Shown here piece by piece: positions 16,801 to 59,872 of a stretch of 64,000 nt of DNA. The notes below the pieces were generated by a model. The model made no database searches. It was not told where the DNA came from and saw nothing but the letters and a program-made list of their open reading frames with translations. The position numbers and the translations under genes were made by a program. This DNA comes from an uncultured Gammaproteobacteria bacterium (GTDB lineage: Bacteria; Patescibacteriota; Microgenomatia; Levybacterales; UBA12049), in assembly GCA_964474445.1 (NCBI GenBank), contig CAYYSJ010000001.1, positions 14,530 through 78,529 on the forward strand, in the 5' to 3' direction. Numbering within the stretch: the first letter of the stretch is position 1; each line of letters opens with the position of its first letter.

Positions 16801-19800
16801 CATTGTTCGGATTATTAGCAACGATAGTATCAGCTGTGGGGATTCCATTGTTATTGTAATAAATTTCTAAAGGTCCATGTGGTGTCGTTGTTCCAACTCC
16901 CATATTGCCAGAAGAATCAACGGTAACCAAATTTGTTGCTCCGTTAATATTGCCGGTTATGTGGAACTTATTATCCGTCCCAATATTCGTACCAAAGGAA
17001 TATGTGCCGTTTAAAAACCATGTTCCTGCAAGAGTATTGGTGTTTGTACTATAGAATTGTCCAATTGCTCCACTTGCAGCTTGCACGGACAGCAATTGTG
17101 GTGGGGTTGTTACTCCAATTCCTACGTTTCCGTTTTGTGTTATCACAAATCTACTTAAGCCTGATGATGAGGCAGTGAAGAGATCACCCAAGCCAGAGTT
17201 ATCGATAACAAGTCCCGCAAAAGAAGTTTTCCCTGATAATGAGGCTACGGGAGTTGTTCCTAAGTTACCTCTGACATCAAGCGTTGCAAGAGGAGAAGTT
17301 GTTCCAACACCAACAGTTCCACTCCCTGAGAAAGTGAGGTTGAATCCAGAGAGAGGAAGATCCGTATTGCCCGTTAACCCTCCACCCAACTTGATCGTGT
17401 TACTAGTTCTGGTCAAACCATTATTAAAGGTAAGAGGTACCTCATAATCTGTGCCAGATGTTGCAATAGCAAGTGTTCCGTTTCCGCTTGTAGTTTTAAT
17501 AAGACCATTCGTTGAAAGACTGGAGAATTGGATAGTTCCAGAAGAGGTAAGACCGGTTAGACCAGTAAGGGTTCCTGTTGCAACAAGATTTCCGTTATTC
17601 CCAATGGTAAATTTCGTTGTTCCAGAAGCAGAAGCTGAAAAAATATCATTGGCAGATGCCCCTGTTTGGTTAACGATGAATGCTGCGTTCCCACCAGTAT
17701 TCCCTCCTTGGACATGAAGCACTGCTTTTGGAGATGAAAATCCTCGTCCAATGGCCATCCAATTTGGATTAGGATTGATATAAAAAGGAGAAAAGCCATT
17801 TGCATCAAGGAGTGTGAAATCACCTGGTGTATTTGCGTTCAGATTAAACGTCCATTCATACGGTATCCCTCCCGTTGCCTGAGCGAGTGTCAGTAGATTC
17901 GGACCGGTACTATTTTCGATAATCATATTATGATTTGTCGTTGCTGTTACGAAGTGGAAAGGTGCACATGCTTCATTGGCACCTGTTCCTTTACAAGTTC
18001 CACCAGAGTATACAGAAGTTCCTGTCCCGAGTTTAAGAAAGGAATTCGTTGTGTCAAAATTGATAAGCGGAGTTCCTGATGAATTGGCAATCTGAAGACC
18101 AGTTGTACTATCAGAGCTTGGCTTCCACTGACTTCCTGCAGCAGAGGTCAGATTGCCATTAAGCGTGAGTGCGGCAAATGTCGGCGAGGAAGTCGTTAAC
18201 AAATTTTGATTTATACTTGTACTTCCTGTTAATGTCAATGTGTTTCCTCCTCCAGTTAAGGTAATATTAGATCCGGTTACTGTTAATGTTCTGGATGTTG
18301 TACCTCCTGCAACGGTAAAACCATCTGCTGCAGAGGTTAAGGTTAACCCATTGACGGTACTGGATGTCGCAAGCGGACCACTCACGGTTGTTGTCACGCC
18401 TGATCGTCCGATTGTCACACCATTTGCATTTGTTGTCCCAATATTGATTCCTGCTGCTCCTCCTGCATCAAGGGTGAGGGCTGTTGCTCCTCCGGAAGTA
18501 ACTGACAGTGCTCCAGATCCCGTAATATTCCCGCCAGCAGTAAAGGCAGGCAGGGTTAACCCAGTCGTTGTTACTGTTCCATTGATGGCTGGAGCTGTTA
18601 ATGTCTTATTTGTTAATGTCTGGGTTGCTCCGATACCAACAACAGTATCGGTTGCAGTTGGGAATGTCATGGTTGTCCCATCGGTACCTGCTAAGGTTAA
18701 GGTATTGCTCACTGTTAATGTTTTAGATGTTGTTCCACCAGCAATACCAAACCCTGTTGCATTTGCCGTAAGAGTAAGACCATTAATCGCACCGAAACTT
18801 GAAATGGTTGGAGAACCAGACCCAGTAATATTGCCACTGGCAGTAAAGGCAGGCAGCGTTAATCCTGTCGTTGCGACTGTTCCATTGATGGTTGGAGCAG
18901 TTAGTGTTTTATTTGTCAGTGTCTCTGTCCCCGCAAGTGTTGCAAGTGTGCCTGTTGTCGGAAGGTTCACATTGGTTGTTCCGGCAAGTGTCAGCGTTAC
19001 TGCTCCACCGGATGTTGTGAATGATCCTCCTAAGGATGTTGTTTGCCCATTCAATTGGTTTGCATTGATGATGCCTGAGTTTGTGTAGGTAATTGTCCCT
19101 CCTGTTCCAACGGTCATTGTTGCACTAACATTGGTGCCCGTTGTTATTTTATCAAAACTCACCGTAGAAAGAGATGCTGAGGAAACCCAGGAAGGTGCAC
19201 TTCCACTGCCATTTGACTGGAGAAGATATCCTGCAGTTCCTGGGGTAAGCGTTGTTGTCGTTGTTGCGCCTGTTGCATATAACACACCATTTGTTGTCAG
19301 GCCTGAGAGCCCCCCTGATGCATTAAACGTTATTTTTTTATTCGTTGTATCAGTATTTAAGGTAACACCTGTACCCGCTTGCAATGTGAACATATCGTTA
19401 TTTTTCCCGGCAGAAAACGAGTTTGTGCCATCACTTACTGTACCGAAAAAATTCGGGGTTGAAACAGTATTGGTAATTGTTGTTCCACTAATACTGATCC
19501 CACTTCCTGCTGTTAGTGTGACGTCTCCTGTTTGCCCTTGGAGTGAAGTAACCCCAGTATTTGTGATTGTTGGATGTTGTCCTCTTGTTATCCCAATACC
19601 TGTACCAGGGGTAACACTATAGACAATGTTTGAGGCTTTGAGAGATCCGTCAATGACAGTATCTCCGGTAATACTGAGTCCATTGGCAAATGTGACTGTA
19701 TTATTAAATTTTGCGGGAATACTAAACACAATCGTACCGTTTAAACTTTCTGGCACATCCTGTATACCAAGCACATCTTTCACTGAGGTAGGGCTGACAT

Positions 19801-20011
19801 TATGCATTTGCATGAGGACTTGGGTGAGCGGAACAGCACTGAGAAGAATGGCCAAGCCTCCTAACAACGACAAAACAAAAGAACGTCGCTGTTTTCTTCG
19901 TAATGACTCATGATTAGGAAAAGATGGGTTAACATTGGGAGAATTCGTATGAATCGCTTCAGATGAGTGCTGTAACAGCTGTTGAAAATAGGAAAAAAAA
20001 CGCATAAACAA
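13832..20011 (-). CDS. giant (2059 aa) Thr/Gly/Ser/Asn-rich repetitive surface protein
   Basis: Uninterrupted 6.2-kb ORF; N-terminal signal/anchor (SFVLSLLGGLAILLSAVPL); internally repeated modules (GNLGTTPVASLSGKTSFAGLVIDNSGLGDLFTAS x2; TLTNKTLTAP(T/A)INGTV(A/T)TTGLTLPAFTA x2; GNVGIGTT(S/T)P-type beta-helical or fibre-like repeats); ends 6 nt before the next gene. Confidence 0.8.
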   Translation of the reverse strand: MFMRFFSYFQQLLQHSSEAIHTNSPNVNPSFPNHESLRRKQRRSFVLSLLGGLAILLSAVPLTQVLMQMHNVSPTSVKDVLGIQDVPESLNGTIVFSIPAKFNNTVTFANGLSITGDTVIDGSLKASNIVYSVTPGTGIGITRGQHPTITNTGVTSLQGQTGDVTLTAGSGISISGTTITNTVSTPNFFGTVSDGTNSFSAGKNNDMFTLQAGTGVTLNTDTTNKKITFNASGGLSGLTTNGVLYATGATTTTTLTPGTAGYLLQSNGSGSAPSWVSSASLSTVSFDKITTGTNVSATMTVGTGGTITYTNSGIINANQLNGQTTSLGGSFTTSGGAVTLTLAGTTNVNLPTTGTLATLAGTETLTNKTLTAPTINGTVATTGLTLPAFTASGNITGSGSPTISSFGAINGLTLTANATGFGIAGGTTSKTLTVSNTLTLAGTDGTTMTFPTATDTVVGIGATQTLTNKTLTAPAINGTVTTTGLTLPAFTAGGNITGSGALSVTSGGATALTLDAGGAAGINIGTTNANGVTIGRSGVTTTVSGPLATSSTVNGLTLTSAADGFTVAGGTTSRTLTVTGSNITLTGGGNTLTLTGSTSINQNLLTTSSPTFAALTLNGNLTSAAGSQWKPSSDSTTGLQIANSSGTPLINFDTTNSFLKLGTGTSVYSGGTCKGTGANEACAPFHFVTATTNHNMIIENSTGPNLLTLAQATGGIPYEWTFNLNANTPGDFTLLDANGFSPFYINPNPNWMAIGRGFSSPKAVLHVQGGNTGGNAAFIVNQTGASANDIFSASASGTTKFTIGNNGNLVATGTLTGLTGLTSSGTIQFSSLSTNGLIKTTSGNGTLAIATSGTDYEVPLTFNNGLTRTSNTIKLGGGLTGNTDLPLSGFNLTFSGSGTVGVGTTSPLATLDVRGNLGTTPVASLSGKTSFAGLVIDNSGLGDLFTASSSGLSRFVITQNGNVGIGVTTPPQLLSVQAASGAIGQFYSTNTNTLAGTWFLNGTYSFGTNIGTDNKFHITGNINGATNLVTVDSSGNMGVGTTTPHGPLEIYYNNNGIPTADTIVANNPNNGSSAETRISLYNDLGVGAGTKGASLFLASSGWASPYTNALGFWNYLNGPIILATNNIERFRIDASGNLGIGTTSPLATLDVRGNLGTTPIASLSGKTSFAGLVIDNSGLGDLFTASVSGTTKFTIANNGNITANGLLTLNWPTITTSGGKGISSTGTIATTTSSATGYGLYETVTNTPATNADTAYGGYLSLNDTGNSLANTDIGLQVDVPNNNTSAKHYTVVLGASPTTNGAFVHSYTAGVNGGNSNDWFGIYWPTQSLYYGISQQLPAPSGTSTVGGYYKGLGIGGSVSGTTDPIFGVLNSAQSANGLGSTAFTIYANNTIDTFNNVLDDGSGNVTLAGGLTVKGTTVTIGNGSSSTIQTSSNAGLTLLSSGTGNITLGQGTGIGDVVVQPNGGGKAALVVNDQGLGDIFTASLSGVAKFTINRNGNVGIRNADTSNPFAILDVGTNGNGVNQIRAADGNFVVNQYGGINAPYFYYSGNSNWFADFQSAQHSFDGFVTVNDAGGSNPKATFDLRSAQGFNGNFAFGTLPIASVSGSTSFSSFIVDQSGVGDLMTASSSGLTRFVLTRNGYMGLGTTNPMYNLDLQGNFSATAAAQIYNTNTTANSGGLIVKLGFTGNGTVPTTQNNGNNFIRFLNGKGESQGSIDSNGGTGVSYNGNGLDMAEYFPKKDVNESLVPGDTVCLDVTGGVTKCISGKSIVGIISSHPSFVGGGNHAGDPNFTLVGLVGQLLAKVSTAQGNISIGDPLTIATDSGVLVKATSAGQIVGHAMESFNQQGTYGQIMVAVQPAWYDPGFYAGATSSSLNMPISASVSSQLQNVPLVADTATISQTLNVLGRTTVTDLGITGNVSAGLITIHGLEGKIDTLAGSLYLQYQRLGGIDFLNGLVTIDTSGNITTQGVIGAQTVQATQFVVKGTTSIGSAVIPQGSTSVEVDTPAMTASDKVFITPTTNITTPLSIAQKGNGKFVIQVSTPQQVDVHFDWFIVKNKL
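16455..17307 (-). repeat. two ~138-bp direct repeats (~93% identical) inside the giant gene (16455..16593 and 17169..17307)
   Basis: Near-identical DNA segments gaggcagtgaagagatcacccaagccagagttatc...gaagttgttccaa seen at both places; they encode the repeated protein module. Confidence 0.8.
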
Positions 20012-38013: not shown

Positions 38014-38427
38014 ATGGGAAAAATCACTGTACAAACTATCGTTAATGCTTCTATAGAAAAGGTGTGGGACTATTGGAATAAACCAGAACATATTAAAAAT
38101 TGGGCTTTTGGATCTAATGATTGGGAAGCTCCAAGTGCAGAAAATAATTTACGTGTGGGTGGAAAATTTAAAACAGTTATGGCAGCAAAAGATAAGAGTG
38201 CAAGTTTTGATTTTACTGGTACATATACGGTAGTAAAAGAGAATGAACTTATTGAATACGATATGGATGAGGCTGGTAGACATGTAAAAGTAGAGTTCAT
38301 AAAATTACCAAAAGGCGTAAGAGTTGTGGAAATATTTGATCCTGAAAACGAAAACCCAGAAGAGATGCAAAGAGATGGTTGGCAAACAATTCTAAATAAT
38401 TTCAAAAAGTACGTTGAGAGTATATAA
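38014..38427 (+). CDS. SRPBCC/AHSA1-domain (activator of Hsp90 ATPase homolog-like) protein
   Basis: 137 aa; N-terminal ...IEKVWDYWNKPEHIKNWAF... pattern typical of the Aha1/SRPBCC domain. Confidence 0.6.
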   Translation: MGKITVQTIVNASIEKVWDYWNKPEHIKNWAFGSNDWEAPSAENNLRVGGKFKTVMAAKDKSASFDFTGTYTVVKENELIEYDMDEAGRHVKVEFIKLPKGVRVVEIFDPENENPEEMQRDGWQTILNNFKKYVESI

Positions 38428-42134: not shown

Positions 42135-42512
42135 TTACTGATTTGGTTTTGATCTTCTCCCTCGAGGAAAACCCGATTTTCTATTCTCACCTTCTAATGC
42201 ATGTCGTACCTTTTCAACAGTGGATTTTCCTCTCTTTATTCTCTTGGCTACTTCCTCTGCTGTTTCTTCTGTATGTAAATGATATTCAGAAATAAGCTGT
42301 CTTATCTCTTCACTTACTTTACGCCTTGCTCTTATCAATCCTGTTCCACGGGGTTCAAGAATACCTTTAAAATGTCTATTCATGAAGTCCCATGCTCCTT
42401 GTTGGGACATTCCTAGTAACTCTGCAATCTGCGCACTTTTAATAACCTGATCTTGATGTTGATTAAGGTATGCCTTAACAATGTCAATTTTAACTTGAGT
42501 CTCCTTTTTCAT
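42135..42512 (-). CDS. stand-alone double-HTH protein resembling a transposase N-terminal DNA-binding domain (IS630/Tc1-like); no DDE domain
   Basis: Two HTH-like segments (SAQIAELLGMSQQGAWDFMNR; TAEEVAKRIKRGKSTVEKVRHAL) and a basic tail GFPRGRRSKPNQ; 125 aa, with a 320-bp AT-rich region upstream. Confidence 0.4.
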   Translation of the reverse strand: MKKETQVKIDIVKAYLNQHQDQVIKSAQIAELLGMSQQGAWDFMNRHFKGILEPRGTGLIRARRKVSEEIRQLISEYHLHTEETAEEVAKRIKRGKSTVEKVRHALEGENRKSGFPRGRRSKPNQ

Positions 42513-42831: not shown

Positions 42832-43506
42832 ATGTGTGGACGATATACAGTGACAAATCCAGATGAACTTTATGAGAGGTTTGATATTAAGAACCGAGTC
42901 GAGCTTACCCCTCGGTACAATGCTGCTCCATCTCAAGAACTTCCTGTTATTGATCAACCTCATCATGTTGAGTTAATGGAATGGGGTCTTATCCCTCATT
43001 GGGCAAAAGAAGGGAAAGTAGGCTACAGCATGATTAATGCTCGTGTTGAAGGAATAGAGAAAAAACCATCATATAAGAAGCCGTTATTGTATCAGCGCTG
43101 CATTGTTCCAGCAGATGGATTTTTTGAGTGGAAACAAACGAGAGCTGGTAAGGTCCCCTACTACTTTAGACTCAAAGATGGAGAAATGTTTGGTTTTGCA
43201 GGACTCTACGATGTATGGACAGATAAAAATGGAAGAGAGCTCAAAACCTTCACCATTATAACCGGTGTTCCCAATGAAATAGTTAGTGAAGTACATAATC
43301 GAATGCCGGTTATACTTAAGGAAGAAGACGAGCGAACATGGCTTAACCCTGATATTGTCGAACCAGAAAGGCTTCTTAATCTTCTCAGACCATATCCAGA
43401 TAATGAGATGGAGGATTACATTGTTTCAAAAGCGGTAAATAGTCCAGCACATGATGATCCAGATGTTATTTCTCCTCAGGAAAGTCCATATATACCTCCG
43501 ATATAA
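42832..43506 (+). CDS. SOS-response-associated peptidase (SRAP; YedK/HMCES family)
   Basis: Starts MCGRY (the catalytic Cys2 hallmark) and has NARVE and FFEW... motifs; 224 aa. Confidence 0.85.
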   Translation: MCGRYTVTNPDELYERFDIKNRVELTPRYNAAPSQELPVIDQPHHVELMEWGLIPHWAKEGKVGYSMINARVEGIEKKPSYKKPLLYQRCIVPADGFFEWKQTRAGKVPYYFRLKDGEMFGFAGLYDVWTDKNGRELKTFTIITGVPNEIVSEVHNRMPVILKEEDERTWLNPDIVEPERLLNLLRPYPDNEMEDYIVSKAVNSPAHDDPDVISPQESPYIPPI

Positions 43507-43663: not shown

Positions 43664-43828
43664 TTACTTAGCAAGTCGAGCTGCGTCTTCTTTACTTAAG
43701 ATTTTGAACAAATTTGTTCCATTGTAAGATGCTTTTGCTGCCATCTTACCATTTTTCATGGTAACGACAGTTACTTCACTATCTGGAACATCGACACTTT
43801 GTCTTGTTTTAACATTGTAAAACTTCAT
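43664..43828 (-). CDS. unannotated small protein (54 aa) MKFYNVKTRQSVDVPDSEVTVVTMKNGKMAAKASYNGTNLFKILSKEDAARLAK
   Basis: Not in the ORF track (under 60 aa). ATG at 43828 is preceded by a perfect AGGAGGTGA site at 5-nt spacing; translated by hand with no internal stop; terminator hairpins lie downstream; palindrome site A is 52 nt upstream. Confidence 0.45.
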   Translation of the reverse strand: MKFYNVKTRQSVDVPDSEVTVVTMKNGKMAAKASYNGTNLFKILSKEDAARLAK

Positions 43829-43880
43829 GCGATTCACCTCCTTTCAGTTTGACCTCAACATTAACCTTTGGAATATAATA

Positions 43881-43895
43881 TGCAACTTAGTTGCA
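43881..43895. promoter_or_regulatory. perfect 15-bp palindrome TGCAACTTAGTTGCA (site A), candidate operator
   Basis: Exact inverted repeat 7-1-7, 52 nt upstream of the small gene 43664..43828(-), with a TATTAT -10-like hexamer adjacent; one of three identical copies in the window. Confidence 0.6.
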
Positions 43896-43945
43896 CTTTG
43901 TCAAGAGAGGAAACAATATCTTTAAGGAAAGGTCAAAAATGAGAG

Positions 43946-45451
43946 TTATTGATTATCTGCACGTACGGTAGGTAGTTCTTTAAGGAAATTTTGATAGGCT
44001 GCTGGATCTTTACCAGTAACAGCATCAATAACTTTATATACTAGTTCATCTGATATCTTTCTCCATGCCCCTTGAGGAGGATTTTTCCCTACATTTTCTG
44101 GGTCATATTCCAGTTCACCATATTGTAGTGGATATATCATTGCTCGCAATAATTCAAAACTTGGTTTATGCACTAATGCAAGTCCAACAACGCCTAGCTT
44201 ATTATTACTATTTGGTAAACCACTATGAGTATGCACTTGAGCATAGCCTTCTGAAAGTTCAGTTCCTATAACGCTACAATCATCAGGCATTTGTATCCTT
44301 TGGATATTATTTATAAACTCTTGTCTTTTTTCTTCTGGCCATGCAAAAAGAACATTGAATAAAGGTTCTGAGTTTTCACGAACGTGAGAGGTTTCTAATC
44401 CGCTTTTCTCCCAAACATTTTGGATATACTGCATAAGTTCTTCTGATGTTTCAGGAACTTTTAACCCTTCGAATCCAAGTTTTTCAATGTATTGTTGGAT
44501 AAGCGCATTGTTTCGTTCTCCTTCGGGAATGAGATCTGTTATTGGGATATGGATTTCTTGTCTTTCCAGTTCCCCATCTTCGTTTGCTGAAGAAAGTGTT
44601 ACAGAAGGGTTTTGTATTATATCTTCATGAGATTCTGACTGTTGATCAGTATACCCTTTCAAAATAGGAGCTGGTGCTACTGTTCTTCGGGTGGGTCTAG
44701 AAATAGGAGGTGATGTTGTTTCTTGTCCCAGAATGGTAAGATAGCGAGATGATAGGGCATCTGGTTCTTGTGTTATTATTTTTTCTGCAGTTTGAACGAA
44801 GTCATCTTTTTCTGTTTGCAACTTTCTTTCAGTTTCCAGTAAATCGATGATCATATCTGCTGAATCTTTTCCAAAGATGCCTGCAACAAAGCGTATTGTT
44901 TCTTTTCCATCTGTCAGTTCATTAAATTTACCATGATAGGTCACGATCATATCCTTAAGGAATTTTTGAATTCTTGTGCTAGGATCATTTGCTTCAGGAG
45001 TTCCAAAGTAGCGATTATAGAAAGCATCAATAATTTCAGGGGTAACTTTTCTATTAGCAGCAGGAATCGCATGCTCAAGATCTACACCTAAATGATCATG
45101 CCATTTGATAAGATCTCTCACAACTTGTTCATTGTCTGGATTATTAAATGCATTTACGGTGTCTTCTCTCCATTTTTCATATTGTTTATCAAAGCTAGCA
45201 AGTGATGAGTCTTTTTGTACTTGATCGTGCCAATAATCTGCACTCTCTTTTGCAGAAGCAGTAGTGACTGCTTTGTAGGTATTTTCATGAACTCCTGTTG
45301 TGTTTTTAAGATCTTCCACATGATGTAGTGTAAGAGGTTGGTCAAAAACTCCAAGTGCTGCTCGCACTTGAAAGTGGAGTGGGCCTGTCGCAGTTTTTGG
45401 CGATTCCCGTCTTTCTGAAGCTGTTTGTTTTGCTCCTTCTGGATTTGTCAT
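43946..45451 (-). CDS. large orphan hypothetical protein (501 aa), cytoplasmic by sequence
   Basis: Uninterrupted ORF; no signal peptide or TM; no recognisable domain; palindrome site B 36 nt upstream of the start. Confidence 0.5.
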   Translation of the reverse strand: MTNPEGAKQTASERRESPKTATGPLHFQVRAALGVFDQPLTLHHVEDLKNTTGVHENTYKAVTTASAKESADYWHDQVQKDSSLASFDKQYEKWREDTVNAFNNPDNEQVVRDLIKWHDHLGVDLEHAIPAANRKVTPEIIDAFYNRYFGTPEANDPSTRIQKFLKDMIVTYHGKFNELTDGKETIRFVAGIFGKDSADMIIDLLETERKLQTEKDDFVQTAEKIITQEPDALSSRYLTILGQETTSPPISRPTRRTVAPAPILKGYTDQQSESHEDIIQNPSVTLSSANEDGELERQEIHIPITDLIPEGERNNALIQQYIEKLGFEGLKVPETSEELMQYIQNVWEKSGLETSHVRENSEPLFNVLFAWPEEKRQEFINNIQRIQMPDDCSVIGTELSEGYAQVHTHSGLPNSNNKLGVVGLALVHKPSFELLRAMIYPLQYGELEYDPENVGKNPPQGAWRKISDELVYKVIDAVTGKDPAAYQNFLKELPTVRADNQ

Positions 45452-45487
45452 ATTTATAGCCCGTAGGATATCATAAAAAAGTTAAAT

Positions 45488-45502
45488 TTGCAACTAAGTT
45501 GC
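45488..45502. promoter_or_regulatory. perfect 15-bp palindrome TGCAACTAAGTTGCA (site B) in a divergent promoter region
   Basis: Lies between 43946..45451(-) and the ClpB-like gene 45571..47523(+); a TATAAT hexamer sits downstream on the plus side. Confidence 0.6.
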
Positions 45503-45570
45503 AATAATTGTTGTTTTCTTTTATAATTACACAGCCTTATATATAAAGGTAATATAACAAATTTTATTTT

Positions 45571-47523
45571 ATGGATTTATTAACAGTTGTAACGCAGGCA
45601 GAGAGAAAAGCCGGCCAGAATGAGACAGCATTTTATGCAGAGATTGCCCTTGCAATTATCAAAGGCAATGCGCTGTATGAACTTCTTGATGGAAAGGAAA
45701 AACTTGAAGAGGAACTCTCAGCTATTGAAAAAGCTTCTGAGGCACAAACGCCACGACTTTTCAAAGGGCAAGATGTCAGTACCCTTTCCCTCCAAACCAA
45801 ACTTGCCTCGCTATGTAAAAAACAACAAAAGGTACTTTCCTGCTCTCAAGTTGATGAACATGTCCTACTGTTGGGTTGTTTAAAGGGACTGCAAGATAAG
45901 TTACCTCATACATACAATGATGTCCTCAAAGAGATCCTTTCCAAACAATTGCATAAAATTGAACAACCAAGCCATACTGCACACCTTGTTGGACGAAAAA
46001 AAGAGTTAGAGGAAATTATAAAAGTACTTAATCGAACAGAGAGAAATAGTGTGCTACTGGTTGGGCAAAGTGGTGTTGGTAAAACAACCCTTGCATTAGG
46101 TATGCAACAGAAATTACCTGAAAAAAAGATTTTACGACTATTTCCTTCAGATAATTTGTTTGACCAAGTTGTTACTATTCTTTCTTCGAGCGATAAAGAT
46201 ATATTATTTTTCCTTGATGAATTACCTTCTTTTGAAATGGGACAAATTCAGTATCTACTTGAAAATGGACAAGTAATTGCAACAGCAAATGACACTTCAT
46301 TTAAGAAGCTAGCAGGAGACTTCCCTCATATTATTAGTAAATGCGAAGTGATTGAGCTTGAAGAGCCAAGTGATGAGGACCTCAAACATATTTTGTCTGA
46401 TAAAGTACAAACTCTCCAATCACAATACAACGTTAGTTTCGAACAAGGGGTACTTGAAGAAGTTATTCAGCTTACGAAGCAATATATTCACGAACCATCC
46501 TTCCCTGCCAAAGCCCTTACTTTGCTTGAGGAAGGGGCGTTGAGTACTCAGTCTCAAAACCTGCAATTTGTCAGTAAAAATTTTCTTCGCATTCTTATTT
46601 CACAAAAAACAAATATTCCAATTGGTTCACTCACTGAATTTGAGAAAAAAGATTTAGTTAATTTACCTGTCAAATTGAAAGAAAAAGTAAAAGGACAGGA
46701 TCAGGCTGTTGAAAAAGTCGCAGCAACGATTCAGCGGTCTCGACTTGGGTTTAAAAAACCAAATAAACCAATTGGTTCATTCTTATTTGTTGGACCATCA
46801 GGAGTTGGAAAAACAGAACTTGCAAAAGCGTTGGCAAAAGAGGTATTTGGAGATGAAGAAGCAATGGTACGGCTTGATATGAGTGAGTTTGCTGAGGCAC
46901 ATATGGTACAAAGACTTATTGGATCCCCTCCTGGCTATATTGGCTATGAAGAAGGAGGACAACTGACAAATCCTGTCAAAGCAAGACCTTACACGTTGGT
47001 GCTTCTTGATGAAATTGAAAAAGCACATCCTCGTGTGTTTGATATCTTCCTGCAAGTGCTGGATGATGGAAGACTGACTGATGGACAGGGAAAAAAAGTT
47101 GATTTTCGAAACACAATCATTATTGCAACAAGTAATGCAGGTATTGAAGATATGCTTGATATGATTGAGGATGGAAAAACACATGCAGAAATGGAGACAG
47201 AAATTAAAGATATTCTTTCTGATTATTTCAGGCTTGAATTTATTAATAGATTTGATGGTCTCATCCTCTTTAATCCTCTTATCCCTTCAGCTCTTGAAGG
47301 TATTGCGCAAATTCAAATTGCCAAACTCCAAACAGAACTCCAGAAAAGAAATATTCAGCTTGCAGTTGCTCAGGAAACCATTGCAAAGCTTGCGCAAAGC
47401 GCTTACGACCCTCGATATGGTGCAAGAGGACTCCTCAGACTTTTACAAGATACTATAGAAAACAAACTTGCAGAAATGATCCTGAATAATCAGCTTCGTG
47501 AAGGCGAACGAGTGGAATTTTAA
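45571..47523 (+). CDS. ClpB/ClpC-family AAA+ ATPase, atypical (short degenerate D1, no M-domain, no ClpP-binding loop)
   Basis: D1 Walker A LLVGQSGVGKTT, but the region aligning to the ClpB arginine-finger/ERRF block reads ISKCEV. D2 is highly conserved (FLFVGPSGVGKTELAKALA...MVRLDMSEF...GYIGYEEGGQLT...LLDEIEKAHPRVFDIFLQVLDDGRLTDGQGKKVDFRNTIIIATSN); 650 aa. Confidence 0.8.
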   Translation: MDLLTVVTQAERKAGQNETAFYAEIALAIIKGNALYELLDGKEKLEEELSAIEKASEAQTPRLFKGQDVSTLSLQTKLASLCKKQQKVLSCSQVDEHVLLLGCLKGLQDKLPHTYNDVLKEILSKQLHKIEQPSHTAHLVGRKKELEEIIKVLNRTERNSVLLVGQSGVGKTTLALGMQQKLPEKKILRLFPSDNLFDQVVTILSSSDKDILFFLDELPSFEMGQIQYLLENGQVIATANDTSFKKLAGDFPHIISKCEVIELEEPSDEDLKHILSDKVQTLQSQYNVSFEQGVLEEVIQLTKQYIHEPSFPAKALTLLEEGALSTQSQNLQFVSKNFLRILISQKTNIPIGSLTEFEKKDLVNLPVKLKEKVKGQDQAVEKVAATIQRSRLGFKKPNKPIGSFLFVGPSGVGKTELAKALAKEVFGDEEAMVRLDMSEFAEAHMVQRLIGSPPGYIGYEEGGQLTNPVKARPYTLVLLDEIEKAHPRVFDIFLQVLDDGRLTDGQGKKVDFRNTIIIATSNAGIEDMLDMIEDGKTHAEMETEIKDILSDYFRLEFINRFDGLILFNPLIPSALEGIAQIQIAKLQTELQKRNIQLAVAQETIAKLAQSAYDPRYGARGLLRLLQDTIENKLAEMILNNQLREGERVEF

Positions 47524-47590
47524 CATATAACAATTTCGTTTAGATTGCTCTGTAGTACACTTTCCAACTCCCACGAGCATTGAGTTGCAT

Positions 47591-49672
47591 TTATGTGGCA
47601 AGTTGTGCATTATTTTCTACTATCCATACTTCTTCTCCAAATTTCTGACTTTTTTTGAATCGTTGTTTGGCTTCTTTTGTGGTATCTCCTGTTGCAACGA
47701 TCAGCTGGGTTACTCGTTTCCCTTCTACCTTTGTTTTTGTCCATCCAACATAAATGGCCGTTTTCAACAGAGGCTTGGCTGTTTGAAGAACGTCTTCTAA
47801 AAGTGTCGCTGTAATTTCAGGAGGAAGTTTTTTTGGTATGAGTGGTCTGACTACAAGACGAGGCTTTTTTCCTTTTTGTTTTACAGTTGCCAATACCACC
47901 TCACGAATGTGTTGTTGGGAGTCAAGCGACCCAGGAAGTGAAGCGGCAACCGAAAGATTAGAAATAGCTTGTGTTTGATTTTTTTTTGCTTTTCTCTTTA
48001 GTGCGGGATCTGAAGGGGTATTTGGTGTCGGATTATGTTGAACAACGCCTTGTTCAGATAATAAACGCTCGACATCTCCAGTTTCTTGTTTTTCCTGTTT
48101 GACTGCTTTCGTTTGACGTTTTTCTTCTGTGCGTGTTTCCTGTGTTGTTATCTGCACTGCTTGTTTTTTGCTTTCTTGAGCAATTGTCTGGACTAATACT
48201 TCCTCCGCTTCTGCTTGCTCTTGTCTTTGTTGAACAGTCTCAATAGCACGAGCAACAGCTTCACCTGTCTTTACTTTTACTGGTTCTGCAATATTTACTT
48301 CTACTGTTATTTTTTGCTCAGATCCAAATGTTTTTGGTTTTGGATCACCTTTTGGTTTCTCTCCAGGGATGCTGTTTGTTGGAATAGGTTGTCGTCCTCC
48401 CTCTTTCTCTCTTTTCGTGGGAGTAACTGGTTTTTTATCAGGTTGAGGCTCTTTTCCTTTTTCTGAAGGTACTTTTGGGAAAACTTTTGCAACAAGTGAC
48501 ACAGCTACCTTTTTTACTCTCCCTTGTTCACTATTTCCTTTTTTCTCTGCACGTACTGGGGTATCTTTTCCTGACTCTCTTGTTTTAACACCTGTTCTTT
48601 TCCCCGAGTCGGCTTCTTCTTGTTTCCGTTGTTTGTGCTGTCCTCCTTCTGGTTTGTTGACTATCCTTTTTGCAACATCTAGTATTGATCCTCCTGCTTT
48701 TGACTTACTCGGTTGTTTATCTGCAGATGAGCGAGGTGTTGAAGTACCACGTCCTTGCTTCTCACTTGATTTTCCTACAGTCGGAAGAGGCACTTTTGAT
48801 GCAAATGTATCTTTCATTTGATGAGGAAGACCTGGCAAAAGACGTACCTGAGCTTTTATGGAAGTAGCAGGGACAGGGAGAAGCGGACGTTGAGGTAGTG
48901 TAGGACTTATTGGTGGATTTGGTTTCACATTCTGTAGCTGTTCAGCTATACTTTTGAAGTTATTTGCATTCTCATTTGCATGGTTATCGCAGATTTTTTG
49001 ATAAGGACGTCCTTGATTATCAAACGCTTTTTCGACATGAAAAGCACCTGAGGTATGTCCCATTCCAAGCGTAAAATAATATAGATTTTTTTCATTCAAT
49101 GCTTTTGCTTCCTCTTGAATAGTTTTTTCTTTTTCTGCTTGTTCTGGAGTGAAGTTTCCATTTTCTCCTCGTGCTTTTATAACGGCATCATACGCCAGAG
49201 TGGCAGCGGCCCGCATCTTTGGATCTGCATCAGCAGACATAGCTGTATCTAACGATACTATGGAAGGATCTTTTAATTGAGCAAGTGTTAAAGCAAATGC
49301 TTGGGTATCAATAGGGTGGTTTTGTTGTTTTAGTTTTGTCATCTCTTCTTGCAGAGACTTAACAAACACATCTGTTAGCTCTTTTTCATGTGCCATCATC
49401 TTTTCAGAAATTTGTGGTGTATTGGGATCAGGAAGTGTTCCAACAGCTTTATCTTCGATCGCCTTTCTATAGCTTTCATCCACTTGAGGGTTATCAGGAA
49501 GAACAGCTTTTTTGGCAACAATGGTGGCAACAGCTGGCAAAGCCTCTGCGATCGTTTTCACCTCAGGACTTACTCCTCTTTCTTTCTGTAAAGCAGGTTG
49601 TGACTGAGCTTCTTTTTTCGTAACAGACGGTGGTAATGGTCTGTTTCCTCTTTCAATAACGGGTGACACCAT
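47591..49672 (-). CDS. large orphan Lys/Glu/Pro-rich protein (about 693 aa)
   Basis: Uninterrupted 2.1-kb ORF. The track start (49678) is a TTG; the first ATG is at 49670..49672, and palindrome site C begins 2 nt upstream of it. Long low-complexity K/E/P/T-rich central region. Confidence 0.5.
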   Translation of the reverse strand: MVSPVIERGNRPLPPSVTKKEAQSQPALQKERGVSPEVKTIAEALPAVATIVAKKAVLPDNPQVDESYRKAIEDKAVGTLPDPNTPQISEKMMAHEKELTDVFVKSLQEEMTKLKQQNHPIDTQAFALTLAQLKDPSIVSLDTAMSADADPKMRAAATLAYDAVIKARGENGNFTPEQAEKEKTIQEEAKALNEKNLYYFTLGMGHTSGAFHVEKAFDNQGRPYQKICDNHANENANNFKSIAEQLQNVKPNPPISPTLPQRPLLPVPATSIKAQVRLLPGLPHQMKDTFASKVPLPTVGKSSEKQGRGTSTPRSSADKQPSKSKAGGSILDVAKRIVNKPEGGQHKQRKQEEADSGKRTGVKTRESGKDTPVRAEKKGNSEQGRVKKVAVSLVAKVFPKVPSEKGKEPQPDKKPVTPTKREKEGGRQPIPTNSIPGEKPKGDPKPKTFGSEQKITVEVNIAEPVKVKTGEAVARAIETVQQRQEQAEAEEVLVQTIAQESKKQAVQITTQETRTEEKRQTKAVKQEKQETGDVERLLSEQGVVQHNPTPNTPSDPALKRKAKKNQTQAISNLSVAASLPGSLDSQQHIREVVLATVKQKGKKPRLVVRPLIPKKLPPEITATLLEDVLQTAKPLLKTAIYVGWTKTKVEGKRVTQLIVATGDTTKEAKQRFKKSQKFGEEVWIVENNAQLAT

Positions 49673-49673
49673 A

Positions 49674-49688
49674 TGCAACTAAGTTGCA
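49674..49688. promoter_or_regulatory. perfect 15-bp palindrome TGCAACTAAGTTGCA (site C) abutting the start of the 695-aa gene
   Basis: Exact copy; on the gene strand it reads TGCAACTTAGTTGCAtATG, so the ATG follows 1 nt later (leaderless configuration or an operator overlapping the TSS). Confidence 0.6.
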
Positions 49689-49821
49689 TTTTATCATATA
49701 ACAGATATTTATAGCAAGGCGACGTGCCTGGAGGGCTGAAATAGTGAAATCTGAGTGCTGTCATACATGTTTATTTCACCTATCTTTCCCTAGATCCTAA
49801 GAAGTTCATTATGTTTGAGTT

Positions 49822-50202
49822 ATGGAGCCACGAAGTGCTGCTGACTTTGCTTTTTCATTTTTTTCACACAATCGTGTTGCAGCAAATGAAACATTGTTTA
49901 CCCTGCAGAAAAAGGCAGACAGTAAGCTAAATAGCACCCCAATTTTTGGAAAAATGAGGCAAAGAAGAATAGAAGGTAAGTTAAGGGGCGTTCAAGAGCG
50001 TATTACTGAATATGAAACAGTAGAGCATGGTTTATTAACAAAAGATTACACACCTGCTATTACGATCTTAGAACGTGAAGCACAACATCTCGAACAATCA
50101 AAATCATCACTCGATGCAATAAAGCGGGTCTCACGAAGACAAGGAAGGCAAGAAGCAATTAGAATGAGAGTAATGGCACAACAACTGAGGTCATCACAAT
50201 AG
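49822..50202 (+). CDS. hypothetical protein (126 aa)
   Basis: ORF only; no motif. Confidence 0.3.
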   Translation: MEPRSAADFAFSFFSHNRVAANETLFTLQKKADSKLNSTPIFGKMRQRRIEGKLRGVQERITEYETVEHGLLTKDYTPAITILEREAQHLEQSKSSLDAIKRVSRRQGRQEAIRMRVMAQQLRSSQ

Positions 50203-52397: not shown

Positions 52398-54098
52398 TTA
52401 GGAAGCAGTGTTTTCTTTGGAGATTGGAAGGGTAAAATAAAACGTAGAACCTTTCCCTTTTTCACTTTTTACCCACATTTTTCCTCCATGTATTTTGATA
52501 ATCTCTGATGAAATATATAACCCAAGTCCTAAACCAGGAAACGTTTTATGTTGAGCTGCTTGATAAAATCGTCCAAAAATTTTTTTTACCTCCTCTTTTG
52601 CAATACCCATACCAAAGTCTTGTACATACATCTCTATATAATCGCCTCTCTTGTGAGATCCAACAAGTATCTTATCTCCTTCAGGTGAATATTTAATTGC
52701 ATTAGTAACAAGATTAATGATAACTTGCCGTATTCGTTCTTTATCTGCATGTACTGGTAGATTTGTATGCCAGTCTAGTATAAGTTTCTGTTGTGTGAGT
52801 GGTTGTAAAGTTTCAATGACTTCTTCAGCAAGTTCTTTGACAAAAAACTGTTGTGTATATAATGCTAATTTTCCTCGTTGCATTCGTGTTACATCAAGCA
52901 GTTCATTAATCAGTCCTGATAACATATCAATTTGTATATTAATTTTTTCAATGAATTTTTTCATGTCAAGATCTTTATTTTTTGCAAGTTTCTTATCGAG
53001 CACTTGCGCAAAAACTTTCAAACTGGTAAGGGGAGTTTTTAACTCATGGGATGCCATAGAAATAAGATCATTTTTCTGTTTTTCCAACTGCTTTCTCTTT
53101 TCCAATTCTTTTTGAGATGCTTCATAAAGTTTTGCATTCTCCATGGCAAGTGACGCTCGATTTGCAAGTTCTTCTGCCATTGTCAGATCAGCATCTGAAT
53201 ACTGTTTTCCTGATTCTGCTGTTACAAAGGTAATAGCCCCCAAGGGTTTCCCAGAAACAATAAGCGGGACAATCATTGCAGAAGTAAAACCTATTTTTCT
53301 CATAATTTTTAACTGTTCCTCGTCTCGTGCATTTGTAACAAGCATATCGTCAGTGATCACTGAGTATATCTCAGATTTTCCTGTACGCATCACTTGAGGT
53401 ATTCCTGCGGTATGATTGATATCAATAGGATATTTTTCTCGTAACTTTTTCGCCCATATCGTTTTTTCTGGATCTTTATGAGCAATTGCTACAGACTCGA
53501 AATCACTCTTTTTGTTTAGCAATTCAACAGTACACCAATCAGCAATATGTGGTACTGCAAGCTTTGTCACATTTGCCAATGTTGTTTTATAATTAAGAGA
53601 AGATGAAAGAATTTTACTCGCCTCAGATAAAAATTTTAAATTTCCTTTTAACCGTTTTCGATCAGTAATTTGTCGAGTGATTTTTGCAGCTCCGACAATT
53701 TCTCCTTCTGCATTTCGAATTGGAGATACTGATAAGGAAACATCAATAGAAGCACCTAACTTTGTTAGTCTGACTGTTTCATAATGGTTAATGTGTTTTC
53801 CTTTTTTTATATTTTTCAGAATTGCTGATTCTTCTTCTTGTATCTCTTGAGGAATAACTGAGGACATGTGCTTTCCAAGTACTTCATTTGCAGTATATCC
53901 GTACATTTCTTCAGCTGCTTTGTTCCAACTAAGGATATACCCATCGACTGTTTCACCAATAATGGCATCGTCAGAAAATTCAACGATTGCTGCGAGAAAG
54001 GCTACTTCAGGGAATGGTTTCTCTCGAATTTTTTCTCCCCAACTCTCATGGAGTAATTCCATTAATTTTTCATCCATTTGCCATTTACAATATAGCAA
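52398..54098 (-). CDS. sensor histidine kinase with PAS and GAF domains
   Basis: HisKA box MASHELKTPLTSL; HATPase_c N/G boxes (LVTNAIKYS, DFGMGI, GLGLGLYIS); N-terminal PAS-like and GAF-like regions; likely cytoplasmic. Confidence 0.8.
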   Translation of the reverse strand: MLYCKWQMDEKLMELLHESWGEKIREKPFPEVAFLAAIVEFSDDAIIGETVDGYILSWNKAAEEMYGYTANEVLGKHMSSVIPQEIQEEESAILKNIKKGKHINHYETVRLTKLGASIDVSLSVSPIRNAEGEIVGAAKITRQITDRKRLKGNLKFLSEASKILSSSLNYKTTLANVTKLAVPHIADWCTVELLNKKSDFESVAIAHKDPEKTIWAKKLREKYPIDINHTAGIPQVMRTGKSEIYSVITDDMLVTNARDEEQLKIMRKIGFTSAMIVPLIVSGKPLGAITFVTAESGKQYSDADLTMAEELANRASLAMENAKLYEASQKELEKRKQLEKQKNDLISMASHELKTPLTSLKVFAQVLDKKLAKNKDLDMKKFIEKINIQIDMLSGLINELLDVTRMQRGKLALYTQQFFVKELAEEVIETLQPLTQQKLILDWHTNLPVHADKERIRQVIINLVTNAIKYSPEGDKILVGSHKRGDYIEMYVQDFGMGIAKEEVKKIFGRFYQAAQHKTFPGLGLGLYISSEIIKIHGGKMWVKSEKGKGSTFYFTLPISKENTAS

Positions 54099-54330: not shown

Positions 54331-55563
54331 TTGCATTTTTGCTCTTACCTCTCTTTCGTACACTTCTTACAAATAGTTATAGGTTTTCCTATGATCTCAC
54401 CACAACAATTGAAAAAGTTACATGAGGCAGGACAGCGCTTTCTTGCGCCTCTTACCCCGTATGAGACGTATGTTGCACTTGTTGAAGAAGGTATACGACT
54501 AAGTAAAGCAACATGGGGGTCAGTATTCATTCCTGACAAACAGAGTTTTAAAAAAGTATATGCCTCCCTCCCCTCTCTTATTGCTGTAAGACCTCGTAAA
54601 AAAGGGACAGTATATAAAGCATTTTCCACACGAAAGTCGGTTATTTATACAAAGAAACAAGTTTATTTTTTAAAAAAGTATCATCCTGAATTTCACGATC
54701 TACCGGTAAAATCAGCTGTTATGATTCCTATTTCCTATGGAAGAGAAGCTATGGGTGTTTTGTGCTTACAAGCAACAAAGGAAAATCATTTTTCAAAAGA
54801 GCTCATACAGATTCTTGAAATTTTCGGGTCTATGGCATTTATCTGCATAAGAAAGACACATCTTTACGAGCAGGTACAAAAAGCACTTGAGTTGCGGGAT
54901 CTCTTTATCTCGATTGCTTCTCACGAGCTAAAGACTCCATTAACCGCTGCTACGTTATACAGTGATTTACTCAAGAGTAAACTGCAGGCAAAAGCTTTGC
55001 CTGAAATGAAGCTTTCAGAGTCGCTCTCTCATGAAATTTCACGTCTCAAGCGTCTTATTAATGATCTTCTCCAGATAGAACACATTAAGAAAGGTAGTCT
55101 GCATTACGAGTGGGAGAAATGCAGTATGCAACACGTTATTAAGGAGGCAGTTGAGGAGTTTACTCATCTGTATCCTTTTTATAAAGTATCTATTAAATAT
55201 CACTTATATAAAGGACTTGATACGATTGTTGGTGACTTTGACAAGCTGCTTCAGGTCATTACTAATCTTTTGACCAATGCAGCTAGATATTCAACTCCAG
55301 AGGATTCGATAACAGTTGTATTGGAAGAACAAGACAACACGATTGTTATCCACGTTATCGATAAAGGGAAAGGTATTCCTCAATCAGATATTCCAAACAT
55401 TTTTGAAAAGTTTTATAAAGGTGAAAATAGTTCCCATGAAGGAATGGGACTTGGGCTCTATCTTACTAAAAACATCGTTGATAATCATGGTGGAGCAATT
55501 ACTGTTGATTCAAAATTACATAAAGGAACAACTTTCTCAGTAAAACTTCCAAAATATCTATGA
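54331..55563 (+). CDS. sensor histidine kinase with GAF domain (start possibly at the Met at 54391)
   Basis: HisKA IASHELKTPLTAA; HATPase_c (LLTNAARYS, DKGKGI, GMGLGLYLTKN). Confidence 0.8.
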   Translation: MHFCSYLSFVHFLQIVIGFPMISPQQLKKLHEAGQRFLAPLTPYETYVALVEEGIRLSKATWGSVFIPDKQSFKKVYASLPSLIAVRPRKKGTVYKAFSTRKSVIYTKKQVYFLKKYHPEFHDLPVKSAVMIPISYGREAMGVLCLQATKENHFSKELIQILEIFGSMAFICIRKTHLYEQVQKALELRDLFISIASHELKTPLTAATLYSDLLKSKLQAKALPEMKLSESLSHEISRLKRLINDLLQIEHIKKGSLHYEWEKCSMQHVIKEAVEEFTHLYPFYKVSIKYHLYKGLDTIVGDFDKLLQVITNLLTNAARYSTPEDSITVVLEEQDNTIVIHVIDKGKGIPQSDIPNIFEKFYKGENSSHEGMGLGLYLTKNIVDNHGGAITVDSKLHKGTTFSVKLPKYL

Positions 55564-57808: not shown

Positions 57809-58528
57809 ATGTCGGAAAGTGGGGTGATAAATGTGCAAAAAACAGTTATTGGCATTTTCTCCTCTGAAGAAGATGCACAGACGGCTGTGGAAGATTTAGA
57901 GACAGCAGGATACGAAACAAAAGACATTTCTATCATGATGAAAAACAGAACCAGCGCTGAAAGATTTGCAAATGACACAGGCACAAACGTTGCAAACAGT
58001 GCAGTATCTGGTGCAGTCACAGGAGGTGTGATTGGAGGAATAGCAGGACTTCTTATTGGCATTGGAGCGATTGCTGTCCCAGGCATTGGAGCACTTCTTA
58101 TTGGTGGTCCTATTGCAACCGCGTTAGGTGTAACAGGTGCTGCTGCAACAACCGTGTCTGGTGCGACAACCGGTATCCTTGCAGGTGGTCTTATTGGTGC
58201 ACTAATGGGGCTTGGTGTGCCTCGTGAAGATGCAGCAGTCTATGAGGAACGTATAAAACAGGGAGGCATTCTTGTAGCAATTCCCGCTCAAGAAGGAAGA
58301 GAAGAGGATGTAATGGCTATTCTTGAAGATAATGGTGCTGACCAAATTCGTGCAATTGAAGCATCGATTCCCTCTGAAAGTGCTCGCGAAGAAGTCTATG
58401 AAGACCCGGTCTCTTCTCAAAATGGGTCATATGAGTACACACAATTAGGCATAAAAGGTGGTAAAAGCAGGGCAGCTTCGAAAAAGACTTCTCCAGAGAG
58501 AAAAACACGTGTAAGAAAAAAAACATAA
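57809..58528 (+). CDS. general stress protein 17M/YflT-like with Gly-zipper membrane segment
   Basis: N-terminal YflT-like domain (SEEDAQTAVEDLETAGYETKDISIMMKN) and Gly-rich helices (GGVIGGIAGLLIGIGAIAVPGIGALLIGG). Confidence 0.55.
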   Translation: MSESGVINVQKTVIGIFSSEEDAQTAVEDLETAGYETKDISIMMKNRTSAERFANDTGTNVANSAVSGAVTGGVIGGIAGLLIGIGAIAVPGIGALLIGGPIATALGVTGAAATTVSGATTGILAGGLIGALMGLGVPREDAAVYEERIKQGGILVAIPAQEGREEDVMAILEDNGADQIRAIEASIPSESAREEVYEDPVSSQNGSYEYTQLGIKGGKSRAASKKTSPERKTRVRKKT

Positions 58529-59527: not shown

Positions 59528-59872
59528 TTACGTGTTTGAAGATGATTTATTTCCCTGGCGTGCCTGTCCTCCAAGTTTACCAATTCTACTGTAGTGACTT
59601 GGTCCAAATTGTTTTTTTGTGGCATTACCACCTTTTCTTCCTAGGCTTCTATAACCATCTTTTCCAAGCATACTTTTTCTGGATTGACCCCCTTTCTGAC
59701 CAATCCGTTGGTAAAATTCACGTCCATACTCTTTTTTTGTAGCAGTTCCCCCTTGTTTTCCAATATTCTGGTAGAATCTCTTGTCATGAGTACTGGCAGT
59801 TTGTTTACCACCTTTTCTCCCTGCATCCGCTGTTGTCATTTGTCCCTTCTGGGAAGTATTGTTATTGGGCAT
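59528..59872 (-). CDS. KGG-repeat general stress protein (YciG/Con-10-like)
   Basis: Repeated GxKGGxxxxKK units (GRKGGKQTAS, GKQGGTATKK, GQKGGQSRKS, GRKGGNATKK, GKLGGQARQG). Confidence 0.55.
   Translation of the reverse strand: MPNNNTSQKGQMTTADAGRKGGKQTASTHDKRFYQNIGKQGGTATKKEYGREFYQRIGQKGGQSRKSMLGKDGYRSLGRKGGNATKKQFGPSHYSRIGKLGGQARQGNKSSSNT

Follow-up and report, generated by a model that had tools for sequence, protein, structure and literature searches.

Three palindromic promoter boxes in a Levybacterales genome: probable operators of a Fur-family, Zur-like metalloregulator

In this study, we have analyzed a stretch of 64,000 nucleotides of contig CAYYSJ010000001.1 (hereafter the window), assigned to the Levybacterales within the Patescibacteriota, in which an exact search finds exactly three copies of TGCAACTWAGTTGCA, designated boxes A, B and C (Table 1). 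The element TGCAACTNAGTTGCA is a perfect 7-1-7 palindrome of 15 bp, a size that fits the operator of a homodimer (~15-19 bp). Only 0.01 exact matches are expected by chance and none of 100 dinucleotide-preserving shuffles of the window got to three, which bears out the view of the first-pass annotation that the three perfect copies are highly non-random; its coordinates for box B (45488..45502) have to be moved one base to the right. The 64-kb window contains no fourth copy with up to two mismatches. A symmetrized weight matrix built on 57 sites, all from other genomes (consensus aATGCAAnTwAnTTGCATt), ranks box C highest, followed by boxes B and A, with the runner-up position in the window at 13.0 bits. 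The lone half-site AGTTGCA that had been placed at 47580..47586 is actually located at 47583-47589, and it is unremarkable: nine copies of this half-site are observed against about four expected, and three of the nine are inside the boxes.

The boxes are situated directly upstream of four genes. The distance between box and start codon is 52 nt for the gene of a 54-aa protein (ATG 43828), 37 nt for the gene of a 501-aa protein (ATG 45451), 67 nt for the gene of an atypical ClpB-like AAA+ ATPase (ATG 45571) and 1 nt for the gene of a 693-aa protein (annotated ATG 49672). In a consensus promoter scan each box overlaps sigma-70-like core promoter elements. Box A together with aag makes up the whole 18-nt spacer of the minus-strand promoter of the 54-aa gene. 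Box B lies between the divergent 501-aa and ClpB-like genes, and its right arm doubles as the -35 TTGCAA of the predicted ClpB-like promoter on the plus strand; it would also cover the -35 position of the 501-aa gene, where no good -35 is seen. In the candidate promoter of the 693-aa gene, the last base of the extended -10 is at the same time the first of box C, so that the box extends over the predicted start site; a putative alternative promoter, aTGATAaaa-box-TATGGT, would likewise have box C in its spacer. All three boxes thus occupy places where a repressor could compete with RNA polymerase, which supports the earlier proposal of a palindromic operator that ties these genes into a regulon under a dimeric regulator. 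By its position, the 126-aa gene that diverges from box C is a possible, yet unproven, extra target; no convincing plus-strand promoter overlapping box C was found for it.

Table 1. Positions of the boxes, the predicted promoters and the genes discussed, numbered from the first nucleotide of the window
Feature	Position	Strand	Remarks
Box A	43881..43895		TGCAACTTAGTTGCA; exact match; 21.4 bits
Box B	45489..45503		TGCAACTAAGTTGCA; 17-bp palindrome counting flanking T and A; exact match; 22.5 bits
Box C	49674..49688		TGCAACTAAGTTGCA; with flanks ATGCAACtaaGTTGCAT; exact match; 25.7 bits
Predicted promoter, 54-aa gene	43875..43904	-	-35 TTGACA (43904-43899), 18-nt spacer, -10 TATTAT (43880-43875); 11/12 matches
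Candidate -10, 501-aa gene	45470..45475	-	TATGAT; read from sequence
Predicted promoter, ClpB-like gene	45499..45527	+	-35 TTGCAA, 17-nt spacer, -10 TATAAT; 10/12 matches
Candidate promoter, 693-aa gene	49688..49717	-	-35 TTGCTA, 18 nt, TGnTAAAAT; 9/12 matches plus extended -10 TG
2059-aa open reading frame	13832-20011	-	
Stress-type genes (AHSA1-like, YflT heat-induced stress protein, KGG/LEA_5-type)	38014-38427, 57809-58528, 59528-59872		
125-aa protein	42135-42512	-	HTH_23/HTH_17 matches below threshold
SRAP peptidase	42832-43506	+	
54-aa protein	43664-43828	-	Cys-free DUF5679 relative; conserved target of the box
501-aa protein	43946-45451	-	without family; promoter region contains box B
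Atypical ClpB-like AAA+ ATPase, 650 aa	45571-47523	+	
693-aa Lys/Pro-rich protein	47591-49672	-	without family
126-aa protein	49822-50202	+	divergent from box C
PAS/GAF histidine kinases	52398-54098, 54331-55563		

The same combination of box and promoter recurs in other genomes. Eighty metagenome loci were fetched with an alignment of the 54-aa family (A1), that is by protein homology and hence without selection for a DNA motif (locus numbers preceded by L are used below where loci have to be told apart). The sequence CTTGACAaaTGCAAnnnnnTTGCATATAMT, in which the palindrome constitutes the spacer of a near-consensus promoter as it does in the case of box A, recurs in these loci upstream of the small gene or of the gene that opens its operon. 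The module TTGACA-(2-3 nt)-TGCAAnnnnnTTGCA-TATAMT is represented by 38 unique instances on independent contigs, 37 of them outside the window, and a second copy of the box is frequent 24 bp downstream, just past the -10. Of the 44 non-redundant loci, 17 have a box with no more than one mismatch in the 150 nt upstream of the small gene; in about 12 others it is found at the start of the operon, 230-530 nt upstream of the small gene. The density of boxes is 3.64 per kb in these 150 nt versus 0.18 per kb elsewhere, and most of the matches elsewhere are at promoters as well. Exact TGCAA-N5-TTGCA is absent from the control loci, i.e., from L002-L016 with distant Clp relatives and from L069-L096 with a remoter branch of the small-protein family. 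In the nearest relative with genomic context (L099; small protein 87% identical), TTGACAtaaTGCAACTAAGTTGCATATTAT precedes the small gene, which is almost base-for-base the arrangement of the window.

These loci also point to the family to which the regulator belongs. L027, for instance, has the box flanked on one side by a divergent gene for a 129-aa protein and on the other by an operon in which a DsrE-like gene is followed by the small gene and a ClpB-like gene. The 129-aa protein belongs to the Fur family (PF01475, E = 7e-27). Fur-family genes are adjacent in 17 metagenome loci according to local phmmer searches, and an exact protein look-up with precomputed Pfam assignments adds those of L097, L098, L099 and L101. 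In L019, L022, L023, L026, L028, L032, L097, L099 and L101 the Fur-family gene carries the box in its own promoter; in L099 this gene, with its own box, is located just downstream of the small gene. The co-localized gene with the box in its own promoter is thus of the Fur family, and no such gene is present in the window. The two regulators that the first-pass annotation had put forward are not supported. The 125-aa protein with a double helix-turn-helix (HTH) has no homologue beside any box in ~85 related loci and looks transposase-type, and the 54-aa protein is a conserved target without HTH.

The DsrE-like gene of L027 (2538-2921) encodes a 127-aa protein with several Cys and a sub-threshold similarity to DsrE/DsrF. 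A gene of this kind takes the same position in L038, L041, L043, L045 and L061; in this group of loci the box is followed first by it and then by the small gene, with the ClpB-like gene coming next in L027.

Genes for metal uptake accompany the Fur-like gene. ZnuA (PF01297), an ATP-binding cassette (ABC) ATPase and a permease follow it in L019, L023, L060 and L101, and ZnuA-like genes also adjoin it in L017, L026, L028 and L032. ZIP transporters (PF02535) are encoded beside it in L062, L059 and L097, and a ZIP gene directly follows the small gene in L031, L035 and L040. The complete 841-kb genome CP129472.1 (L097, 7886-11255) contains an array of FUR, ZIP, NAS/CntL-like, small and YibE_F genes with three boxes, namely before FUR, before the NAS-like gene (a perfect box) and before the small gene. 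The array suggests that a bacterium with a very small genome may make opine-type metallophores. Genes for iron uptake, nickel uptake, catalase or peroxidase were not found next to any box.

His-rich proteins of 400-560 aa with hydrophobic segments, sharing 33-40% mutual identity, are encoded in L101 (6295-7977), L026 (3312-4541) and L034 (1418-3010). Their genes are flanked by the small gene on one side and by the Fur-ZnuABC genes on the other, except that the contig of L034 ends before it reaches the latter. The L026 protein has no Pfam match when scanned and none is on record for that of L101; these proteins may represent a new zinc-related membrane protein family.

The 54-aa protein has 148 homologues with 70-98% identity, nearly all of them 53-58 aa long, and a few come with source names such as Levyibacteriota, Daviesbacteria and Dehalococcoidia. 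The protein of the window is on record in a Logan assembly only, its neighbours being listed from NCBI too; its gene is therefore apparently missing from the NCBI annotation of the source contig. The protein finds no Pfam match even at E up to 10 and contains no Cys, hence no pair of CxxC motifs, and the four-Cys pattern of a zinc ribbon occurs in 0 of the 148 homologues. Among 1.84 billion representatives, the profile of this Cys-free family nevertheless extends, at E = 1e-4 to 2e-7, to proteins having two CxxC pairs; Pfam classes these four-Cys proteins as DUF5679 (PF18930; E down to 1e-17). The segments VTMKNG and G-x-K-[LM]-F-[KR]-I are common to both. Given this reach of the profile, we count the 54-aa family as a Cys-free relative of the four-Cys zinc ribbon DUF5679 and not as a member of DUF5679. 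It is in this respect, Cys-free and connected by a profile to a four-Cys family, that the 54-aa protein has the features of the zinc-independent paralogs of a Zur regulon. A four-Cys DUF5679 partner gene is absent from the 64-kb window, and the papers found to name DUF5679 concern virus-like elements and not its function. The AlphaFold2 (AF2) model of the 54-aa protein (predicted local distance difference test, pLDDT, 91) shows five strands and a C-terminal helix. A fold search with this model retrieved weak, non-significant matches to the LysW zinc ribbon and to Sac7d/Sso7d (E of at least 0.06; template modeling (TM) score ~0.5 for Sac7d/Sso7d).

Two further observations concern this protein family. 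The segments 197-340 of L076 and 556-720 of L035 are identical over their first 90 nt and then diverge: the L035 gene continues with the Cys-free C-terminal half, the L076 gene with ...GRCPVCGTSMFKIGG, the zinc-ribbon half of DUF5679. The pair is either an assembly chimera or a natural recombinant of the two forms. The remoter branch in L069-L096 (MPTIKFYSVKSRK...) is ~50% identical, likewise Cys-free and encoded directly after a membrane-protein gene, with neither a box nor a recognizable promoter of the stereotyped kind in these loci.

The ClpB-like ATPase has a strong, intact second AAA+ module with ClpB_D2-small and a short first module, without a middle domain (Pfam AAA_2, ClpB_D2-small). 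It scores 446 bits with TIGR03346 against a cut-off of 1232 and remains below the ClpB and ClpA cut-offs, and its alignments to ClpB in the PDB cover ~330-649 of 650 residues. Clp_N is not present among the 25 of 51 Pfam matches listed. As read from the sequence, the first module is reduced to a short Walker A-Walker B stretch with no recognizable pore loop of the KYRG type. The 650-aa protein thus does not have the combination of N-domain, two full AAA+ modules and a coiled-coil middle domain, inserted into the first module, of a ClpB disaggregase. Its orthologues (E down to 1e-239) directly follow the small gene behind the box in L024, L027, L030 and L058. The 54-aa and ClpB-like genes are conserved cluster members in other genomes, not simply parts of an accessory gene set. 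In the window the ClpB-like gene is separate from the 54-aa gene but has a box of its own, which argues that its membership of the regulon has been selected for.

As a comparative anchor in reference genomes the ClpB-like gene was of no use, retrieving only distant Clp ATPases without the motif. One locus with a conventional 724-aa Clp ATPase (L004, Woesebacteria UBA925) has upstream of it, at ~1640-1670, the element TTgGCAgTC-N9-GAGTGCTAA, an HrcA site resembling the controlling inverted repeat of chaperone expression (CIRCE), which overlaps a TTGACA. In view of this site, conventional and short Clp ATPases may answer to different regulators.

The 693-aa and 501-aa proteins have no Pfam or NCBIfam match. 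In the case of the 693-aa protein the last ~85 residues (about 47594-47850) are conserved, and the remainder is without detectable relatives. This C-terminal domain is 39-42% identical to proteins of 90-102 aa encoded in L024 and L058 (alignment A2; phmmer, jackhmmer), whose genes are convergent with the ClpB-like gene, the same relative position as in the window. A word-indexed search with the C-terminal 120 aa returned nothing, and the model of the domain, computed from a single sequence, is too poor for a fold search (pLDDT 60). The 501-aa protein is a singleton that matches only itself among 5.8 billion clusters and has no homologue in any fetched locus. An iterated local search with the 501-aa, 693-aa and 126-aa proteins against all fetched loci matched only the C-terminal domain of the 693-aa protein, and by the same kind of search the 501-aa and 693-aa proteins are unrelated to each other. 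The label of orphan genes in the first-pass annotation consequently holds for the 501-aa protein, fails for the 54-aa protein with its 148 homologues and applies to the 693-aa protein except for its conserved end.

Among the more distant genes of the window are a few of the stress type and two PAS/GAF histidine kinases (Table 1); neither the exact search nor the weight matrix places a box at any of these genes. The open reading frame of 2059 aa has no Pfam match and lies in a region with a G+C content of 0.43-0.46, versus 0.38 overall.

Taken together, we propose that the three palindromes are probably operators of a homodimeric metalloregulator of the Fur family, most probably Zur, and that they unite in a probable zinc-starvation regulon the genes of the Cys-free 54-aa protein, of the ClpB-like ATPase and of two lineage-specific proteins. 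The gene of the regulator most likely lies outside the window, elsewhere in the genome, as judged from the relatives. The metal-bound dimer would sit on TGCAA-N5-TTGCA within or across the core promoter and block RNA polymerase, with box A in the -35/-10 spacer, box B over the -35 and box C over the -10 and the start site. Upon a drop in zinc the repressor would leave, and expression would set in jointly for the 54-aa gene, for the 501-aa and ClpB-like genes of the divergent pair, for the 693-aa gene and possibly for the 126-aa gene. The 54-aa protein would serve as the Cys-free counterpart of a four-Cys zinc ribbon, in line with the de-repression by Zur of zinc-independent proteins that are paralogous to zinc proteins. 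For this genome, we infer the binding of a Fur-family protein to the boxes, zinc as its signal and repression by binding, as well as a function of the ClpB-like, 501-aa and 693-aa proteins in the regulon.

A number of observations weigh against this proposal. Neither a Fur-family gene nor a zinc transporter is encoded in the 64-kb window, so that the regulator has to be deduced from relatives, and the promoters of the window are predicted from matches to the consensus hexamers. To our knowledge no role in zinc homeostasis has been described for a ClpB-like ATPase, and we found no literature linking the two. The remaining points touch on the metal and would also fit a Fur-family protein that binds the same operator in response to another signal, i.e., manganese (Mur), iron (Fur), nickel (Nur) or peroxide (PerR), an explanation that we regard as unlikely and under which the regulon would be a response to a different metal or to oxidative stress. 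With NCBIfam, the models for Fur, PerR and Zur give the linked Fur-like proteins roughly equal scores, all far below the cut-offs (24-94 bits versus 146-250), and their best PDB matches are mixed. Proteins of the ZnuA, ZIP and NAS/CntL type can handle manganese, iron and nickel too; they are not strictly specific for zinc, and the ZnuA subgroup of L017, L026, L028 and L032 has no obvious third His. The box also fits the consensus of the nickel regulator Nur, and a Clp/Hsp100-type ATPase with YflT, KGG/LEA and AHSA1 genes nearby would suit a stress regulon. Yet these other stress genes of the window carry no box, and no genes for iron or nickel uptake, catalase or peroxidase adjoin the boxes. 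Both arms of the box match the Zur consensus of Desulfovibrio exactly, the most constant target is a Cys-free relative of a zinc ribbon, a box-linked ZnuA has a His-rich loop (L060) and the ZnuAs of L019 and L060 have a His at the third ligand position. Adding the ZnuABC, ZIP and CntL-like neighbours and the His-rich membrane proteins encoded between the small and the Fur-ZnuABC genes, we consider zinc the likely metal, provided that the binder belongs to the Fur family.

It is very improbable that the boxes are bound by a protein outside the Fur family, either the 54-aa protein acting as autoregulator or the 125-aa double-HTH protein. The 54-aa gene is indeed the most constant neighbour of the box and the model of its product weakly resembles the DNA-binding Sac7d/Sso7d, but these fold matches are not significant. 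The HTH gene is only 1.4 kb away from box A, but related loci contain no homologue of it and its matches to transposase-type HTH models remain below threshold. Moreover, boxes also precede Fur-family genes, a NAS-like gene and operons without the small gene in first position, and in two other lineages this sequence has been described as a box for Fur-family proteins. Copies without a regulatory role, such as a repetitive extragenic palindromic (REP)-like repeat, ends of a mobile element, recombination sites or short terminator hairpins, are already essentially refuted. All three boxes do lie within a 5.8-kb region that includes lineage-specific genes and a terminator scan flags their 7-bp stems, but no T-tract follows the stems and the boxes are at the promoters and 5′ ends of genes, not at 3′ ends. 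The likeness among the copies ends at ~18-26 nt without extended repeats, the composition of the window (38% G+C) shows no break around the boxes as a genomic island would, and Rfam has no known RNA family there. With only three copies in 64 kb, all at promoters, and with a position relative to the -35 and -10 that is kept in the 38 instances on unrelated contigs, the REP-like and mobile-element readings against which the first-pass annotation had cautioned find no footing.

Other types of regulatory elements were compared as well. Read as the -35 of an extracytoplasmic function (ECF) sigma factor promoter, TGCAAC is not followed by a common CGT-type -10 at 16-17 nt downstream on either strand of the three sites. 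The heat-shock operators CIRCE, HspR-associated inverted repeat (HAIR) and CtsR box, as well as LexA boxes, are unlike the palindrome.

Bacteria of the Candidate Phyla Radiation (CPR) have few transcription factors and their gene regulation is little documented; a full-text literature search yielded nothing on a Zur regulon in them. The stereotyped promoter-operator module present across many CPR genomes provides a means of predicting a metal regulon with nothing but sequence data. Through it, zinc limitation becomes a testable condition for the 54-aa protein, the short ClpB-like ATPase and two proteins without recognizable relatives, none of which had one before. If a Clp-type ATPase does belong to the zinc response, this would be an unexpected tie of metal homeostasis to protein unfolding. 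A more far-reaching and rather doubtful idea is that the Cys-free DUF5679 protein, the reduced Clp/Hsp100 ATPase and the ~85-aa domain work together in a zinc-starvation module across part of the CPR, with the 501-aa and 693-aa proteins as fast-evolving recruits. Such a module might replace or dismantle zinc-ribbon proteins and so spare or recycle zinc; a role of this kind for the proteins of the regulon is speculation. It would give DUF5679 a first function and an AAA+ unfoldase a new physiological role.

Several known systems resemble the one proposed here. The predicted Zur box of Desulfovibrio (ZUR_D), ATGCAACNNNGTTGCAT, is a 17-bp ATGCAAC-N3-GTTGCAT upstream of znuABC-zur (Rodionov et al., 2004; PMC545781). 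Both of its arms are identical to those of box C with flanks (ATGCAACtaaGTTGCAT), and boxes A and B differ from it in the outermost base only. The link to a Fur-family gene and ZnuABC is common to both, here in the related loci. The Desulfovibrio box is itself a computational prediction only, and the comparison spans different lineages by way of box and neighbour genes, the present one being uncultivated and of small genome size, with relatives named Levyibacteria, Daviesbacteria and Woesebacteria. Unlike in Desulfovibrio, the targets in the window are a mini-protein, a Clp-type ATPase and lineage-specific proteins, not transporters. The Nur box of Streptomyces coelicolor, tTGCaa-N5-ttGCAA, has been footprinted and is bound by a dimer of the Fur family (An et al., 2009; PMC2691836). 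This palindrome has the form 6-5-6, in which box B can be written as TTGCAA-ctaag-TTGCAA, and shares its conserved TGCAA/TTGCA ends with the present sites, where, however, the inner bases C-T-W-A-G are conserved as well. Nur responds to nickel, with sodF and nik genes under its control, whereas boxes of the window type have neither nickel nor superoxide dismutase genes linked to them.

With regard to the 54-aa protein, zinc-independent paralogs are described as common in Zur regulons (PMC5912738). The protein fits this pattern in being small and akin to four-Cys zinc binders, with all four Cys lost, and in being encoded behind a Zur-type operator. Panina and co-workers reportedly described, in 2003, such Zur-regulated, zinc-independent (C-) paralogs for the zinc-ribbon ribosomal proteins L31, L33, L36 and S14. 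In contrast to these, DUF5679 is a family of unknown function and not a known ribosomal one, no Cys-containing partner is encoded in the window, and conservation of the Cys-free form is very strong (70-98% identity among the named phyla). The Fur, PerR and Zur boxes of Bacillus subtilis are 15-bp inverted repeats of the 7-1-7 type. The boxes described here share with them this form, the overlap with the core promoter and, in related loci, a presumable autoregulation of the regulator gene, but differ in sequence (TGCAACT-N-AGTTGCA versus TGATAAT-N-ATTATCA and variants). The proposed system is of a known kind, in which a Fur-family repressor acts at an operator over the promoter. New are the lineage and the set of genes in the regulon, namely those of a very conserved Cys-free relative of DUF5679, of two lineage-specific proteins, and of a reduced Clp/Hsp100 ATPase together with its small partner domain.

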